This document shows, piece by piece, positions 13,475 to 40,600 of a DNA stretch of 64,000 bases (position 1 is its first letter; each line of letters opens with the position of its first letter). The DNA comes from Octopus vulgaris. Lineage: Eukaryota. Made by a program: the position numbers and the translations under genes. The stretch spans positions 97,030,001-97,094,000 of the forward strand of contig OX597816.1 in assembly GCA_951406725.2 (NCBI GenBank), written 5' to 3'. Below the pieces are notes generated by a model. The model saw only the letters and a program-made list of their open reading frames with translations. It searched no databases and was not told the DNA's origin.

Positions 13475-13794
13475 CACGCACACACGCACACATACGCAAG
13501 CATGCACACATACGCAAGCATGCACACATACGCATATGATAGTCTCTCGTAGTCTGCGAAAGATGTTCCTGCAATTTCTTGCTGAACAATCTGCACAAAT
13601 GAGTTACTATAGTGATCAAATGTTCGTGCTGTACTTCCTTCATCAAATCGAAGTTGCCTCAACAGGTGCATAGTCCATCACACGTCAGGCGTCGAAATGA
13701 TCGCAGAGCAACTTGAGATGAAGTGTTTTGTTGAAGGACACAATGCACAAATGGGTGCAAGGATTGAACTAAACCTCTCACCTCTCCATGCTGG

Positions 13795-14660
13795 TAGTTT
13801 ATTCCATGCTTCAATAATTCCGAGCGTGAAGAAATGTTTCCGAAAGCCATGGGTGCTGTGTTGTTTTTTTATTTTATAAGCATGTCCGCGAGTTTTTGAC
13901 ATGCGGGACTCAAAAAGGTGCCCAAGGTTGTTATTGAAAAGATGGATAATTTGGTTGGTGTCTACCAAGTCAGTCGCCAGATGTCTGAGCTTCAATGTGT
14001 CCATGCCCAGGGAAGCAAGACGTTCAGAGCATGGTAGATGCCTAACGGCGGGTTTTCGTTTTGTTGCCCGTTTCTGAACAGTTTCCAAGGGATATATATG
14101 CTGAGCAAGATAGGGGTTCCTGACTGCTGATGCAAATTCTAAGTGTAGACTACCATTGTCATTCGCAATTCTAAATAGATACCTGGATAGCGGCTGAAAA
14201 AGGTCTTACTGAGTGATGCTAGGATACCCTTAGCCTTCTTTACAATCATAGATATGTAGCTTGTCCAACGCAGATAGCTGTTTACAATAATGCCCAGATC
14301 ACGTTCCCTAGAGACTTCTTGAGATTGGTGTTGCTGAGGGAGTATGTAGAATTTGGATTTTTCCTCCCAAAACGCACTTGTCCACTGCTAGCTTGATTTG
14401 CAAGTCAAAGATCCATTGCTGCATTGTGTCCAGGTCTGATTGCAGGAAAGATCTAAAGCGCATAGGATATCTTTTTCTTTATTTCGAGGTACAACTTGAT
14501 GTCATCTGAATATTTCAACACTTAGCTCCTGAAGTTGGCACCTATATCATTAATATATGCAATAAGTAGTAGGAGTCTAAGAACGGATCCCTGTGGTACA
14601 CTAGAAGTCATCTAGGGTGAAGAATGATGTACTAGAATCGTGACTACCTCTTTTCAGCCA
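13795..14660 (-). mobile_element. CR1-like LINE RT fragment
   Basis: VPQGSVL, YSDDIKL, ETVQKRATK, TRGHAYK and FFTLGIIEAWNKLP motifs; stops and frameshifts. Confidence 0.85.
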
Positions 14661-25650: not shown

Positions 25651-28087
25651 CAGTTATATATGTTAATACTTGAGACCATACTGATACATATGGTCTAGTA
25701 TCATAGAAGCGCTTTTACACAGTAAGGACTGAAATGAAGAATAACACCACATCGGCTCTTCATGTCAACTAATGGTCCTCTGACGTATATGCTGGAATGG
25801 AATTTGCATCGTGCTGTCGAAATGCTCAGTAAACCTGAATAATGAGTAGTGTTGTATGAATATGTATAGTTTAGGTAGGTATTATTCCAAAAATTACAGT
25901 TACAGAAATTCATCAATACAATAAATATAAAATCGAAGATTTTCATCATGTCTACATGTTTCACCGAGAAGCTGAAAATCACATTACTGAAACTATTACT
26001 TTCAACAATCGCATGATTTCTAAACATCCACATTCATATATCTTCTTGTCATGAAATATGTCTAAAAACAACCCTGCATTTTGCACGTAAACGTGACTAT
26101 TAAATTGCTTAGTAAAAATGAGAAAGAAAAATTCAAATTCACATAACATCTATTCGTTGCCCTCTTCCTAAGGCCTGTTTATACTTTAGAATACTGTCGT
26201 AGAACCTGTTATTAAGATGATCACGTAAACTACACCGTTACAACAGACTGTCACCGCTAACCCTGCAGCAGATAAATAAAATAAAATAAAAAAAAACAAA
26301 AAAACAAAATGAGTGTTATGGTTTGCCATACTTATGGCAGATCTCCAGCACGAATGCGCAACAGAAAATAAAAAAGAAAAACGAAATATCATCAGAGTTG
26401 ACAACAATGAATAAAATATCAATATATTGAATTAAGAGACTCATGTGATGAGAAGGAAATAGATTAAAATTGGTTACTGGAACTTTTACCGTTGGAAGAA
26501 GAATATCTATGAAATTTAGTATGATTGCAGTATACAAATAATATTCTTGTCATAATTTAGACCAAATATAATTTGGTCTAAATTATTGGTTCATCATGCT
26601 AGTTTTCTTCATTGATTTATTGGAACTTATCTGTTTTATAGTTAGAGAACCAAAGTAACTATGCTAATACTCTTTCAATGCGTCTCTATGTGTTTTTGTG
26701 ATAATCTCAGAATTTAGAAATATATAAACACTACATCATAAGGAAGTGTTGTAAAGTAGTAAACAAACTAATACTTCTAAGTCATATGGTAGGAGAGAAA
26801 CATTTGGCAGAATCGAATTTATAATTGGCTTTTGATTCTCTGCATCTACTCAATTTACATCCTTATTTTCACCAGGAAATGAGTGAACTTCACAAGCTTC
26901 GTTCAAGTGCATTATTATGCAGATTCGAACACACGAGGAAAGTGAAATTTGTGTAAGATGTAATTTCTAAAGTGACAAGATCAATATCGAACTAAGAAAT
27001 TCGCAACTACGTAAAACAGGCATAATTCTAATTTGAGTTTTCCAGAAAAATAAACTTATTTCAATTCTAGCTAAAAAGGAGAATGGTACCATGCGAACTA
27101 TTTGACATTATACTAATAATATACATTGAACTAAAACGAGGAGGCGATGGATGTGATATTCGAATAGTGATGTGTGCAATGCATGTTAACAGTTATTTGC
27201 TTTGTGGATAACTGGATGGTAAAGAGCAGCTTGCAAAATACCTTGTAGTAGTTAACGTACGACCTTTGATGGTTAACTATCAAAATTCAACTGTAATCGA
27301 TGTTCTCTCTCATTATTCCATGATCAGTCAAATACATCCCACCCAAGTACTGGGACTAATGTAATTGGTGCTACCTTGGCTCAAAATATGTTGTTGTCTC
27401 TACATTCTATAAATCATTACATAGTTCTTTAGTCTGTTTTAGTGATCACAAATAAAACCAGGCTGAAACACTGCATTTAAGTGAAGAGTTAATTATTTGT
27501 GCTGAATTGCATGATTTTTCCGACCGAACATCATATCAACATAATATCATGATTATATTATTAATTCCATTAATGCGCTTTCTGTTATTGTACAGTTGAT
27601 TATAAAAGCTATTACTTTATTAAGGTATTACTTCCAAGATATCTGGTTGAATAGAACAATATTGTTGAGGAAAATACGCCAGGAGAGAGTTATGTGCAAC
27701 CTTGCTGATTGAATAAAAGATTGACGAAAAAGAAAATCAAGGTGTCCCGAACAGACGGAATTTCATTTTGTCAGCCGGCAGGAAAAACTTAATTCTTTTT
27801 GGTTTATTTTATCTATGGAATTTAAATTACTTTCCTGAAAAGACTGAGAACGATAAATACAAAATAATAAGTATTGTGGTACAATCCTGAATAAAAGAGC
27901 TACCTAATAATTACAATGCTGACAATAATGATTTTGTTGCACTCCGAAGTAACTATACCAGTGATAGCACTGCTATGAAATCATTGTAATGAGGATAAAT
28001 AAGGTTGAAATCATCATATTTCAGGTTCTAGATTCTTTACAGCGGTTTTACTTCGTTCATAAATTATGTGCCTAATATAACCTTTGA

Positions 28088-28420
28088 AGGCGCATGACTA
28101 AGTGGTTAGAGTATCAGGCTCACAATCATGAGCTAGTGAATTCGATTCCCGGACTGAGCTGTGTGTTGTGTTCTTGAGAAAGACACTTTATTTCACGTTA
28201 CTCCAGTTCACTCAGCTGTAGAAATGAGATGTGACGTCACTGGTGCCAAGCTGTATCGGCCTTTGCTTTTCCTTTGGCTGACATCGGCAGTGTGGAGAGG
28301 GGAGGCGGGTATGCGTGGGTGATTGCTGGTGTTCCATTAACAACCTTGCCCAAATTTTTACCTTGGAGGGTAACATTCTAGGTACACTCCCATGGTGATT
28401 CATGACCGGAAGTATCTTTA
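28088..28420 (+). mobile_element. tRNA-derived SINE family D
   Basis: A-box-like TGACTAAGTGG, B-box-like AATTCGATTCC, CORE-like TGTTCTTGAGAAAGACACTTTATTTCAC. Confidence 0.7.
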
Positions 28421-28971
28421 ATATAACCGTAATATACCCAACTTTGTCACTATCACCATTCTTATCAAAAATAAGAGTCACTCACCACTGTATACACTCA
28501 TTCAAAATTTTATCAATTTAAATCTTGGTGTAGCCTTCCTTTCCGTCCTTGGCACGTATTGCCATAACCCTTAATTATTCTTAGTTAAAGAAAACATAAT
28601 AGAATCATTATTACACTGCTTAATAAATTCAAGCATATACATTGCTTCCTTATTGGCATATTGTTTACCATTGAATCTGAGGATGGCCACGTTCCTCTTT
28701 GTAAGTGACTCCTTTGATTAATCAAAATCCAATTCTTGTACATGTTTGTTTGGAAACTTCATGTGTAAATACATGCGTATGCCTCTATTCTTTTTTCTCA
28801 TGGTAATGCAAAGTGCATTTCACCTCAGTATATCTATTCTCCTACACCTGCGGGACCCCGAAATGAGCTGCGAGTAAATGATTCGTCACTCTCTCTTTTA
28901 GAGTTGATTTTCCTCCATTTCCATGCCTTTGAACTGCTTTTTTCGTCAAACGTCTGAGCCTTAAACATAAT

Positions 28972-29434
28972 TGTAATGTGATTATGAATCTGAATATGCT
29001 TGGGGCAAATTCAAACCGGTCAACATGCTACTCATTGCGTTTTGTCACGGAAAATATATCCAGTTTGTTGATAGATGGTGGGTATACACCTATATCATTT
29101 CGTAGCGCCACCTACGGAGACCATGAAATGCAAGCATTTCGGAGTAGTTATCTCCTCTTCGGTCATGGACACCAAGCAGGTGGCGCTACGAGCTGATTGA
29201 AGAGACTGACTCTCTTATGGTTTTCAAGTTGCCATACGGCGATTGGCAGTGCTATGCGGCGGCTCACTGTAAATGAATTACAGAGGGGGAGTGCTAAGCA
29301 GTGATTAGTAAAATGTAATGTTATTACCTGTCTGAATATGCTTGAGGCACATTTGAACCCGGTCAACAAGTTACTTATTGCGTTTTGTCACGGAAAATAT
29401 ATCCCGTTTGTTGACAAATGGTGTGTATACACCT
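28972..29434 (-). mobile_element. ~342-bp retrozyme-like unit with ~120-bp terminal direct redundancy
   Basis: 28972-29091 is repeated, diverged, at 29314-29434; a hammerhead fold lies between the repeats. Confidence 0.65.
29100..29191 (-). ncRNA. Type I hammerhead ribozyme, U4C variant
   Basis: Minus: TCGTAGCGCCACCT-loop-CCATGA-CCGAAGA-GGAG-ataacta-CTCC-GAAA-TGC-tt-GCA-TT^TCATGG-loop-AGGTGGCGCTACGA. Confidence 0.75.
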
Positions 29435-29832
29435 CTGTGATTAAACATAGGTGTAACAGACAGTTGTGGATTATACGAGAATGGCGCGAGTCAGTCTTGT
29501 ACAATATATAACATATATGTCGGCTCAATTTTGAAGGTTCTGATTCGCCAGAGAAGTATTTTTTTTTGTATAATCCTTTCTCGCGCAGACACAGAGACAC
29601 ATGTTTTAGTAGCTGGATGTGGTCGTGATGGGTTACCATATACTAGGAAATTAGTGATAGCCTCAACACCAATAATTCTTTAACGGACAAGCGTTTATTT
29701 TTGACTCATATCGGAAAGACAAAGGGAAAGTAATAAAATGGGCCTGCTGAAGAATATTTAGAATCGGAAGGAAATGTGATATAAGCCAGTGCCTCTCTAC
29801 CCGTCTCTCTTTTTCTCTCACTATCTCTCTCC

Positions 29833-29923
<91 letters not shown>

Positions 29924-29950
29924 GTGTGCATGTGTCTGTATGTATGTACA

Positions 29951-29994
<44 letters not shown>

Positions 29995-31904
29995 TCATAC
30001 ATATATGTATACAAATGCATATGTATCAATGCAATACATACACATAAACTCGCAGACAATATAATTTTCAAGTAATATTACATCAGATGATGTAAGATAT
30101 TAGGTACATACAATTAGTGTTCAGGCTGACTTCCTGCCTAGTGGCAACTTAATACCTAAAATGCAGAGATGTCATCGCTGCTTAATATAGATTGGATGTA
30201 TGCATTATTTCAATCGTGCTGGTAGATGTAGTATAAAATAAAAGTATAGGCGGGTAACTAACTGGTATCTATTTAGATTATAGCATGTATACGTTTATAT
30301 TTTTATACAACTTTAATGTAAAAAAGAATGTTGCAGGTGTTTAAATCACAAGATAGGTTGATGATTGTTGTGATATATGCTGCTACACTCCCGGAGCAGT
30401 TATGAAGTATGTCCGAAATATTGGTATTAGATAGTAGGTTAAGGCAGATCAAAATAGGTAAAGATCTAAGCAGGAAAGAAAAGAAGGGTGAAGTTGAGCA
30501 AGTAGATCCTTACGACTGTTTCATGAATAGATGTACAGTAGGTGTAATTCCCTACCAGCAGTCTGCAACTAGCATTTCTGTGGCAGAGGAAAAATGTGTG
30601 ATTCACTATATACTATATACGCATAAAATGCTTTCACTTGCAAATATCTCCCTTCCACACACATATATATATAAGTACATGCATATTTACGCATTATATA
30701 TATGCTGGGCCATTGAATTCTCTGTGTTCATTCACCCTTGGACGGATTTTGATTTTATCTGTATCCGACATTCAATCTAAATGCTACGTTTGTCCCCAAG
30801 TAGGCCCAGTGACGTTGCTGGTTTAGTCGCGTACGATCCAGCCAAGCAACATTTTGGACAGGATTATATGTTGCCTGTAGCGCTAACTAGTAACCTAACA
30901 GTATACATACACAAACGCGTACGCATACATACATACATACATACATACATACATACATACATACATACATGCATGCATGCATTCACTCTGACAGAAGGGA
31001 GATAGGCAGATATGCATAAAATCGGCATGTATTCGTGGCTAAATATGTTTTTGCTTTTCTCTGTAAGCTTCCTATTATCTCTTTCTCCTCTTTTTACCGA
31101 TCCCATTCCTTTTTCTTTCTGTCAATAAATAAATAAATACATACATACATAGACACACATACGCACACACTCACACACATGTATCAAGACATATTTATTG
31201 GCACTAACACGCAAATCATGTATAACGATATATAATAATATAACTACACACACACACACACAGAAGCTCACACATATGTATATATTACTCACAAACACTC
31301 TGTTTAAACAGAAGACCACATTAAATCTAATTAAATTGTTAGTTATCTTTAAAAATATTTTTTTAAAAAGTAGGAAAGAAAAGAAGAAAACAATACAGAA
31401 ACATAACAGAAAGGAAGAACAGAAAATGGAAGATAAAAGAATCTAGACATGAAGAATTCTTATCTAAGAATAAATGCGTGCGTGTTCTGTAATTACGGTT
31501 TCTTGCGAATTTGGAAAACTCAACATCTATAAATATTGCTCTATAAATACTTTAGATGTTAGGTCAGACCAGACCAGATGAATATTGATTTTTACATCGG
31601 ATTTACTGTGCAAGTTCTCCAAGAATTTTCCAGAAAAATACAATAGTTTTCTTAGAAAAAAAAAACCCACATTAAATAAATAAATAAGATTAAAACATAT
31701 AAATAAAAAGATAAAATTTTTGAAAAATTATGACAGCTTTTAAGACGAATTCTGACATCTGTTTTTGAAGTTGAGTTGGGAATTCTAAGATCCAAGACAC
31801 GCGTTTGCTATTACTAAGACACGTTAGATTCTAATGCTAAGTGTTGCATTTGATGTTATTCATGTTCTTGCTGCTGCTGCTGTTACCGTTGCTGCTGCAG
31901 TTGT

Positions 31905-32105
31905 CATCGTTGTTGTTGTTCTTTAGAAGACCTATGATCAAAAGCATTCCAGTCGTGACCACTCTAATTATAATATTTAAAGTACGGCATACCCCAAACT
32001 TTCTTATCTAATGAGTCATTCTTTTATTTTCAAAACCACGCAGGATGATTCTAGGAGGATTTGACTGCTATTTCTAGTATAACATGTGACCACGAAGACA
32101 CTCCA
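31905..32105 (-). mobile_element. SINE 3' fragment with (AAC)n tail
   Basis: GACCTATGATCAAAAGCATT is the reverse complement of the ATTGCCTTTGATCATAGGT segment at ~44447-44465. Confidence 0.5.
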
Positions 32106-32620
32106 TTATAATCTCATGAAACAGTTTTGTGTTTCTGGTTGTTATTGGCGTTGTTATTGCTTAATTGTTATTCTTAATTGTTGTTGCAGAATTTCAAGTG
32201 CAGTTGCTATTGGTTTCGTTAATCTTACAGCTTACCAAATTACTCAATTGTGCATGTGACATTCAGAAACTTAATCTCTTTAAATCTTTTCAAAACGGTT
32301 TATTTAAACATACTTTCTCACACCTTTCCTCCATTTTATTTTTATTCATTCTTTCTTCTGTTCTTATCTTACGATCGTTATTTTATTTCTTTCGTTTCTT
32401 CTTTTGTTCGGGTATTATTTGCTTTATCATATTTTCACTTTCTTTTATAATTCATTTTAGATTAATTCATGTTTTTTTTTTCATTCAAACATTTTAAAAT
32501 TTCATTGTCTTGATTATGGTTTTTTCATCGTCCTTTATCTAATATTCTTGTCTCTCTAACACTCTCCTATTACCCTCACACTCCATCTCACTCTCACACA
32601 CCCTCTCTCCCTCACGCCCC

Positions 32621-37627: not shown

Positions 37628-40600
37628 TGTTGTCATCCTGTCAGACTGTTATCACACCCACTCCGGTATAGGAGTATAGTTAGTTAGACAAGACCAAGAC
37701 TATTCACGATCGTCTACTTCGTACTCTCTACTTATACTGACACTGACTGACAGTATTTGTAATGACACCACATACCACTTGTGTCGTGGGAGGAGTGTGC
37801 CATCATTACTATTATCCCCATAACAACTCCCCATTTAAGTTTTTCTTTTTTCTTAGGGAGTGTAGTTTTATTTCTTTTAATAATCATTTTATCATCACCC
37901 CACGTCTATTTTTTCATACAGTTACACATTTATCACATTTTTGTTTGGCATCCACTTCCAGGAACTCCGTACCTTTTCTTTTTCTTATGCTTGTGCGTCT
38001 GGGTTCAATTATTCGTAGTGGCGTTATTACTTGAATAGTATCATATAAACATTCCATTGGTTCTTCCATTCGGTTACGTTCGCTCTCAACAAATCTTTGT
38101 TTTGTTGGTTCAAATGTCTTCTGTATACCTCTTTTCTTCCTTTTACCAAATATAGTATATTTCCTATACGTTTGGTAATCACGCCATCTTTCCAACTTTG
38201 TTTTCCATTCTTATGTGCCTTAACAAATACCTTTTCACCAATTTTGTAATATCTTGTATTTTCCATTGCAATTTTTCTTTTCTTGCTAGGCAACAATTTG
38301 TGGAAGACTGATTTTATTATCCTCGCAAACATCAGCTCTGCTGGTAACATACCTGCTGGTGTATTTGGATTTAGTTTCACACGGTATACTCTTAAACTAC
38401 CTCCTCCGTGACTTCCTTACCCGACCTTCTTAGGGCTCTCTTGAACGTATCGACAAAGCGTTCTGCTTGTTTGTTAGATCTGGTATGCCGCCGTAGTCAC
38501 ATGTTCTGCAGCAAATGTTTCACAAAACATTTTAAATTCAAAAGCCATAAATATCCTTCCATTATTAGAAATTATCGCCCCTGGGAGGCCAAATTTCACA
38601 AACAACTCATGTAGAAATATTGTTGCAGTTGAGGTTGGCTTTTTATACCTACAATTTTCTGTCCATTAAGAGTAACTACCCACTATCACTAAGTAGTATG
38701 AACCGTTTAGAGGACCAGCGAAATCGATGTCAAGTCTCGACCACGGAACATCTACTTTTGGCCAAAGTTCACTTTTAATCGTCAGTAATTCTGCAGCTAG
38801 AGCACATCCTCTAAATTCTGCAGCTAGAGCACATCCTCTAAAGTCTTTCAATAAATTTTCGATTCCTATATTATTTTTGGCCAGTACACGTAGCTAAGCA
38901 TTAAAAATTTCATCCTCGAAATGCCAAGATGTCCAACATCTCAACATTTTCTTTTGCAATATTTCAGGTATTTACTACTCTCTGTGCATACATCAATACG
39001 CCATCATAAATTGTGTATGGATTCACGTCTTGGTTTCATTTCGCACCAGTCCTGTTCCTATTTACTTTTCCTGACCACAGAATTCTTTTCGTTTCTGCTA
39101 TGAATTCATCCTTTACCATATTTCCTCTTATGTCTTCTAGGCTAACCGGTAATTCGCGTACCACATTCCACATTACATTTTATATTTCTCCTTCTGATCT
39201 TAATGCTGCGATTATCGTGTCTTCGAATAGCTCTCAGTGTTTCGGTGTCAGTAGACTGTAGGTGCAGTCCAGTCTGAGTGGTCCGTCTTCTTAATTATTC
39301 TTAGGCTTTCAAGTCTTTCAAGTTCCTTATTTTCCGGTTCTACCGCTGCGAACAGTACATTCTGTTTTGGTTTAAATACAGGCGTTGCACTTTGTTTGAC
39401 TTTAATTTTTGCTTTCGTTTTCGTACAATAGCCTAGTTCCTCCAAGACATCTTTGAAATAAATGTTTTATTTTTCGTTTCAGTCCCTGAGCCGCATTCGA
39501 ACCTTCGACTGAACCGACTATATTCCCACATAAAACACTTATGGGCGTATTCCACAATTTGAACAGTTCCATCCACTATGTACCGAATAGATTCACTGAA
39601 TTTTTAACACATACTTTTACTGTTTTCATTTGGTCATGACATTTCACATTACACCCAAATTCGCTGACAAAATACAATCTTTCACCCGTAACACCAAGTG
39701 CTACTTCTGTAGATTTACTGATTTTTGGCTTATCGATATACTTCCAAGTTTCTTCATTTGCAATAGTAATATCACTTCTAGTGTCTAACTGCATTTTTAC
39801 TCTTATATTTTCAAGTTTCACATTTACAAATTTCTTCTTTGTTATATTACCATTTTCTTTCGACAACATCTTGTTTATTCTTTTTTCTTTGTTCCAACGT
39901 TTTGTCATCTTGGTTTTACGGTGCACTGTTGCGTGTGCAATTTTTCCAGAACGGAAACATTTCACTTTCTTAAATGGGCAGTTTTTTCTTAGGTGTAGAT
40001 CTCCACATGCTGAACATGGGTTTATTTCCTGATTTTTATCCTGTTTGCATTGTATTTTAGTACACACTTGCTTTCTATTCTGCTTCTTTTGCATTTTCTA
40101 ACGCACTTGTTTCATTGGGAGCAATTTTTATGTTCAATTTTCTGTGTCGTGTCTTGAATTTACTATTCTTTCACACTCTTCTGACACTTGTAAGATTACA
40201 GCTTGGTTTTGTTCCAGCTTAGCGAAAATCCTCGTCCTTACTTCTGTGTCATTTTCTGCAGTTAGTCCCTGAACTATCTGGCGTTAATTCGTCCAGTTTG
40301 AAGTTTTTATAATCTCTGTTAACTCTACTAGCATATCTGATGTTCTTTCTCGCTTCAAACATTTCTAGTGTGTATTGAAAAACGATCTTTTGTCGCTAAA
40401 TAAATTACACAGTATGCCTATTGTATTTTAAAAATTTGTCAGAAGGTTTTTCGGGAGTACGTAATTACTGTAACGCTCATGTTCTCCTGCTGCCAATTTC
40501 CTTGGAATTAAGTCGATTTTCATATCGTCGTCCCAATCTTTGCACTTTTTAATGAAGATGTTAGCATCTTCTACATAGCGCGTCGAAGGTAACTCCTTCG

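Follow-up and report, generated by a model that had tools for sequence, protein, structure and literature searches.

A dispersed non-coding hammerhead repeat of Octopus vulgaris with Penelope-type insertion ends and an inherited U4C core

A 471-bp sequence in the Octopus vulgaris genome is, on our leading reading, probably a non-coding hammerhead repeat put in place by a Penelope-like element (PLE), copied from a template that we infer to have been circular. Its U4C substitution in the ribozyme core was inherited from a source lineage in which self-cleavage is predicted to have stayed slow but adequate. The sequence lies within a 64,000-nucleotide stretch of contig OX597816.1 (the window; all positions are counted from its first base). 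The single window copy is ordinary, and the worthwhile part is the presence of U4C throughout a lineage that has a canonical sister. We judge it rather likely that an animal retrozyme lineage fixed this change in an 'invariant' core, along with one in loop 1 that falls on the same branch, and amplified through subfamilies beside that sister. Either a compensated C4 hammerhead would then still cleave, or PLE machinery would have spread an element in which the ribozyme is crippled and its fold maintained for some other purpose.

The insertion occupies 28970..29440 on the minus strand (43% GC) and amounts to 1.37 units of 342-343 bp, the unit itself having 44% GC. These limits follow from target-site duplications (TSDs) of 9 bp that flank it exactly, an AT-rich left copy at 28961..28969 which abuts the family 3' end and an identical right copy at 29441..29449 (both plus strand); none of 24 shifted controls was positive for such a duplication. 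A first-pass annotation, made from the letters alone, had described a direct repeat of ~120 bp at a spacing of 342-343 bp, and this is borne out as a 123-bp terminal redundancy between 28970-29092 and 29312-29434 with 105 of 124 aligned columns identical (85%). On the minus strand, the 3' copy (28970..29092) ends at the family 3'-end site A, the putative start of reverse transcription, and the upstream copy (29312..29434) is a 5' partial second unit that stops short of a second hammerhead. A further family 3'-end site, B, lies about 36 nt past site A (the PLE-type 'tail'), and its internal equivalent is found at 29270..29285 on the minus strand. Six extra bases at the 5' junction (29435..29440, minus strand) are identical to the six that directly follow the cleavage site predicted for the family, a post hoc match that possibly arose by chance; similar starts are seen at locus L115 and perhaps at L007 and L212, with no overall enrichment. 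The locus has no open reading frame of at least 150 aa, and a search for a paralogous empty site with the right flank matched only itself. The window copy is an old, decayed and probably inert insertion, and with its one hammerhead it would not release a monomer. Elsewhere in the window we noted what we take to be a tRNA-derived SINE lookalike (28087-28330, ~630 bp from the insertion) and, at 13678-14205 and 39576-40097, stop-free frames that presumably resemble a LINE C-terminal fragment and a Gypsy-type gag-protease fragment.

The minus strand of the insertion carries a hammerhead rod (29094..29197), that is, a long extended stem I with a type I hammerhead at its tip, which scores 116 bits against a model that includes the window copy. 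The rod folds with z = -6.8 (0/200 shuffles fold as well) and accounts for the z of -4.9 of the whole unit; outside the rod the fold (-45.4) is little better than that of shuffles (-40.5 ± 4.0), and 54% of this decayed copy pairs as a circle. The hammerhead proper (29121..29168, minus strand; predicted cleavage between 29127 and 29126) comprises a proximal stem I of 6 bp (29168-29163 with 29126-29121), the core, a 4-bp stem II, a 7-nt loop 2, GAAA at 29140-29137 and stem III. In the core, CCGAAGA (29156..29162, minus strand), C4 at 29161 replaces the canonical U4, a state inherited in the subfamilies termed T, X and Y. Loop 1 (UGU, 29169..29171, minus strand) has a middle G that is limited to these C4 lineages, the base being U in subfamily U and mostly C in subfamily W.

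The first-pass description of this ribozyme was right on the proximal stem I, stem II and the core and needs amendment elsewhere. The 14-bp distal stem I (29101..29190, minus strand; 29190-29177 with 29114-29101) had been called perfect and comprises 13 Watson-Crick pairs and one G-U. The letters ATGC/GCAT of stem III are present around TT, but the C15.4-G16.4 pair would enclose a 2-nt loop and has a pair probability of 0 in the monomer; it cannot form there, and stem III is therefore effectively 3 bp with a CUUG loop. The AUU cleavage site is likewise present but private to this copy, since C17 is found in 34 of the 38 rows of its subfamily. The suggestion that the stems had stayed intact while the flanking repeats decayed did not survive comparison with the family: the window copy keeps 36 of 40 family pairs (4 lost), against a mean of 88% of cells paired across 49 hammerhead rods, so its stems are ordinary for the family and the implied selection on this copy is unsupported. 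An Rfam search of 26000-32500 at E<=5 missed the hammerhead and matched only microsatellite look-alikes. The letters of the terminal repeat also suggested a second hammerhead, on the plus strand, a reading rejected because that stretch is a plain hairpin across the family.

The search for other copies that the first-pass annotation had proposed revealed a dispersed family, rather than a single-copy sequence, with at least 740 candidate places. DNA searches of the 2.8-Gb assembly gave 740, 1028 and 1582 overlapping candidates, the best 40 being scored in each; the best 40 of the 740 yielded 64 matches, and identity to the window copy reaches 73-82% in the best of the others. The sample combines top matches with exact-pattern matches and is therefore biased to well-preserved copies. 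Covariation across the 49 rods amounts to 63 both-side cells against 30 ± 5 in shuffled data, a difference inflated by relatedness, and the number of pairs with both-side changes (17 against 14.7 in shuffles) is not above chance. The end of the unit joins its own beginning without a seam, and 64 of 145 tracts are longer than a single unit (343 bp), findings that support the earlier proposal that the redundancy was left by reverse transcription past one turn of a circular template, or by a pLTR. At least two complete hammerheads stand in tandem at four loci (L003, L013, L024 and L027), and no tract of three or more units occurs among the 145, the longest being 678 bp. Repeats within one insertion share rare letters beyond expectation in subfamilies X (35 against 10) and U (5 against 1.4) and at expectation in Y (5 against 4.3); repeat divergence within and between insertions is 0.157 and 0.178 in X, and 0.143 and 0.142 in Y. 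Such likeness within insertions does not decide between a circular and a multimeric template. Family relatives also occur in eight runs of contigs presumed to be RNA, which as contigs can show neither circles nor strand; no contig in these eight runs spans the stretch, and a pattern taken from high-depth contigs sharing a 40-nt piece matched only three ordinary family copies. At one locus (L039:1311-1708), a 164-nt segment of an X-type (C4) copy is present three times in tandem, almost unchanged; each repeat stops at the predicted cleavage site and is joined there to the site-A region. These could reflect a cleaved 3' end; 3-4-nt microhomology and a recent local duplication are an alternative.

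Whether U4 or C4 is the consensus was a further point that the first-pass annotation had left to other copies. Judged from the aligned sequences, C4 is the inherited state of the window's branch and not a product of decay or a private mutation of the window copy. A genome-wide exact pattern with positions 4-5 free, whose loop-2 and stem-I letters bias it towards the window's branch, gave 58 matches, tallied by hand as CG 28, CA 14, TG 8, TA 2 and other 6. A control CpG in the same 58 matches was no different (CG 36, CA 15, TG 7; p = 0.77); positions 4-5 thus decay like the control, and T4 copies within the window's branch are accordingly CpG decay products. For a first tree, CpG columns including position 4 were masked, 5 of 123 rows were dropped because their cores were misaligned, and subfamilies were assigned by eye, with 15 rows falling in none. 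The C4 subfamilies are X, to which the window copy belongs (C4, A7; n=38; CG 19, CA 11, TG 7), Y (C4, U7; n=25; CG 15, CA 5, TG 3) and T (n=9; CG 4, CA 2, TG 3), and the canonical ones are U (n=31; TG 28, TA 3) and the older, more distant W (n=37; TG 32). T4 is present in 65 of 68 rows of U and W, compared with 13 of 87 rows in T, X, Y or unassigned. Outside CpG, divergence from each group's commonest letters amounts to 0.14 for W and to 0.09-0.12 for the other groups. In a tree that includes W (14% divergent) and is rooted on it, T, X, Y and 14 unassigned rows form one clade of 86 rows (SH-aLRT 90, fast search); U lies outside this clade, and Y is nested within X. All C4 lineages fall in this one clade, and U4C thus has a single origin, in a source lineage that then spawned subfamilies. 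All six Rfam matches to other hammerhead loci of the genome have a canonical core.

What happened to the ribozyme after C4 arose can be followed through the diagnostic changes, which affect 21 of 124 positions in the 3' part and 4 of 48 in the hammerhead, a count not significantly below background (p = 0.23). The hammerhead changes are N7 A>U, which is the sole change in the core and lies at a free position, one in loop 3 and a compensated pair in stem III, which in Y is paired in 24 of 24 cases (14 U-A, 10 C-G). None of them breaks the core or a stem, against a rough expectation of 4.5 (p ~0.01), and in the 11 other core bases alone only about 2 changes would be expected; this lack of breaking changes cannot separate catalysis from protein binding. 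Differences between X and Y in the distal stem likewise preserve pairing, save one at the terminal pair of the rod. We infer the loop-1 G, purely as a candidate, to be a compensation for C4. Stem III is G-CUUG-C, a stable tetraloop, in U and X, and it is palindromic in W and Y. Palindromic stem III is a feature of hammerheads that act as dimers in the excerpted text of PMC4209133. In the canonical subfamily W, the stem I pairs adjoining the cleavage site are hypervariable, with 22/36 and 20/36 paired at the second and third pairs; these positions have weak or no covariation (p 0.04-0.3), and the hypervariability is absent in U, X and Y.

The ends of the insertions speak to the machinery that made them. 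Across 195 segments in 115 loci, 3' ends fall at site A in 92 cases, at site B, ~36 nt away, in 70 and elsewhere in 33 (that is, 162/195 at A or B), and 5' ends are scattered, the insertions displaying 5' truncation, partial tandems and inversion. Head-to-head pairs number 53; once the 19 with an end elsewhere than A or B are set aside, 31 of the remaining 34 combine one A with one B end (p ~2e-7). A strict TSD of 8-12 bp flanks 12 of these 34 inverted insertions, compared with 1 of 204 controls; a looser TSD scan had proved too permissive (33/115 against 20 in controls), and the strict test was used instead. Closely comparable behaviour is on record in two sources, namely an anole PLE with two internal starts of reverse transcription and a 30-40-bp tail (PMC11167929) and PLE insertions that are inverted with a tail at one end only (PMC8557442). 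The two 3'-end sites and the one-tailed inversions match these reports and constitute a PLE-type insertion signature, which further supports the view that the redundancy arose by reverse transcription. A PLE-type element is the likely agent of the window insertion. PLE-type loci with GIY-YIG abound in the genome, which has 148 matches, 781-aa open frames among them, though a search for a partner PLE found no homology to the family in the best 30 of these 148 loci with 1.5-kb flanks, nor in six Rfam Hammerhead_1 loci (best E ~0.2, GIY-YIG loci included).

The 30 GIY-YIG loci examined carry other hammerhead-like motifs. L187, L192 and further matches represent a young PLE-type family with many 781-aa open frames, and in the related loci L188, L190, L191, L194, L199 and L205 the endonuclease is followed on its 3' side by a hammerhead-like motif of the U3-A8 kind. 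L055, L056, L059 and L189 belong to a different hammerhead family, in which stem II has a long insertion, stem III is palindromic and inverted structures occur. Near one GIY-YIG locus, the minus strand of L197 holds a lone hammerhead-like motif, minimal in form and with C4 in its core.

Based upon these observations we propose a model in which a source copy with two hammerheads would be transcribed, cleaved and ligated into a monomer circle. A PLE protein acting in trans would then nick AT-rich DNA, and cDNA synthesis would begin at the internal site A, ~157 nt 3' of the cleavage site, pass through the ribozyme, continue for a further 0.37 turn and truncate, with repair leaving the 9-bp TSD. 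The source RNA was likely still cleaved, if slowly, and circularised. A circle is favoured because no long arrays are seen and because linear templates would shorten over generations, and the template was not a cleaved linear monomer, since 5' ends do not accumulate at the cleavage site (4/145 ends within ~6 nt, against 5.5 expected). The available text of PMC3088659 states that U4C considerably lowers activity in vitro yet supports viroid infectivity.

The most serious rival, which we regard as possible but distinctly less probable than the model above, accepts mobilisation by PLEs but holds that U4C effectively killed the ribozyme, so that the family spread via uncleaved tandem transcripts or template jumps of the reverse transcriptase, and the rod was kept as a structure that serves the PLE protein or stabilises the RNA. 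It draws on the same strong loss of activity in vitro, on hammerhead mutants that, in PMC11167929, did not affect PLE insertion in vitro, on the lack of 5'-end enrichment just described, on a conservation signal that lies mainly in stems and on the lack of cleavage in eight of nine Xenopus retrozyme dimers (10.64898/2026.07.22.740005, in excerpt). If cleavage is not needed for insertion, as the PMC11167929 mutants indicate, an uncleaved multimer explains the same ends. Against this stand the lack of any tract of three units, given that linear templates have no evident way to regain length, the confinement of core change after C4 to the free N7, and the palindromic stem III that Y keeps through a compensated change.

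The remaining readings carry far less weight. That the sequence is a truncated pLTR of an autonomous PLE, and not an independent non-autonomous unit, we consider improbable: all PLE end features are present, and most PLE insertions are 5'-truncated in the portions consulted of PMC8557442 and 10.64898/2026.07.22.740005, but the unit runs into itself and not into coding sequence, many tracts are longer than one unit, the first 53 loci have no family-wide shared flank, and homology is lacking to the best 30 of the 148 GIY-YIG loci. Nor is there the reverse transcriptase and GIY-YIG open reading frame between pLTRs that an autonomous PLE has, the insertion being complete between its TSDs at 471 bp. 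Still less credible is a canonical U4 copy that acquired a private U4C after insertion. T>C is a common transition and the sister subfamilies have U4, but C4 in 30/38 rows of subfamily X refutes the idea, as does G5, which is hypermutable as a CpG in X (A in 11/38) and not in U (3/31) or W (2/37). The least tenable reading, a chance hairpin within a local tandem duplication, can point to the Rfam search without a hammerhead at the locus, and is refuted by the dispersed family, the covariation and the TSD.

The octopus repeat, with its PLE-type insertion and presumed circular template, bears comparison with the metazoan non-LTR retrozymes as set out in Cervera and de la Pena 2020 (PMC7229834) and Li et al. 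2026 (10.64898/2026.07.22.740005). Those are non-coding 150-450-bp repeats (350-390 bp in mussel) with GC below 50%, no LTR, one type I hammerhead per unit, a TSD longer than 4 bp and co-occurrence with PLEs in the genome, and in its non-coding unit, unit length, GC content, fold, TSD and co-occurrence with PLEs the octopus repeat is alike. It departs from them in the core CUGANGA/GAAA/UH, which sisters U and W possess and the C4 clade of the window copy does not, and in its dispersed copies of up to two units, with no long arrays seen; the two-site 3' ends and inversions of PLEs are, moreover, seen directly in octopus insertions. By the definition of 'active' in the excerpt of Li et al., at least two complete hammerheads, the window copy falls short and L003, L013, L024 and L027 qualify. 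On sequence grounds we call the family retrozyme-type, not a proven member. The likeness to PLEs, as the portions of PMC4209133, PMC8557442 and PMC11167929 portray them, extends to two internal 3' ends ~36 nt apart downstream of the hammerhead, a tail at one end only, 5' truncation, inversions, partial tandems and, in W and Y, palindromic stem III. In contrast to the PLE pLTR hammerheads in the same partial texts, the family has no open reading frame, and its stems are of canonical size (6 + 4 bp) and carried on a long rod, unlike the minimal hammerheads of PLEs; those texts give U3-A8, not C4, as the core variant. The same core substitution, much slower in vitro and viable in vivo, is known from a viroid (Ambros and Flores 1998, cited in the excerpt of PMC3088659), but there it is a variant of an RNA replicon, whereas in the octopus it is fixed in a transposon lineage of several subfamilies with a canonical sister. 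Our literature search found no report of U4C fixed in a genomic family, a provisional result given that Lunse et al. 2017 or supplements may list C4 PLE hammerheads; the seen parts of PMC6765202, PMC11014351, PMC6155905 and PMC3907566 have nothing on C4, and in the octopus literature no title or abstract opening points to the family.

The function of hammerheads in PLEs is called unclear in the excerpted text of PMC8557442, and the link between retrozymes and PLEs was argued, in the part of 10.64898/2026.07.22.740005 available, from co-occurrence and pLTR phylogeny. In the octopus family the insertions themselves, with 3' ends at two sites and a single tail where they are inverted, are evidence that a hammerhead repeat without coding sequence is served by PLE machinery. 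It also offers matched natural U4 and C4 versions of one scaffold, of similar age, which makes the need for efficient self-cleavage directly testable. If the fixed U4C lineage is as we describe it, searches based on CUGANGA miss whole families, and either outcome, a compensated ribozyme that cleaves or a crippled one that PLEs spread regardless, would bear on why PLEs and retrozymes carry hammerheads.
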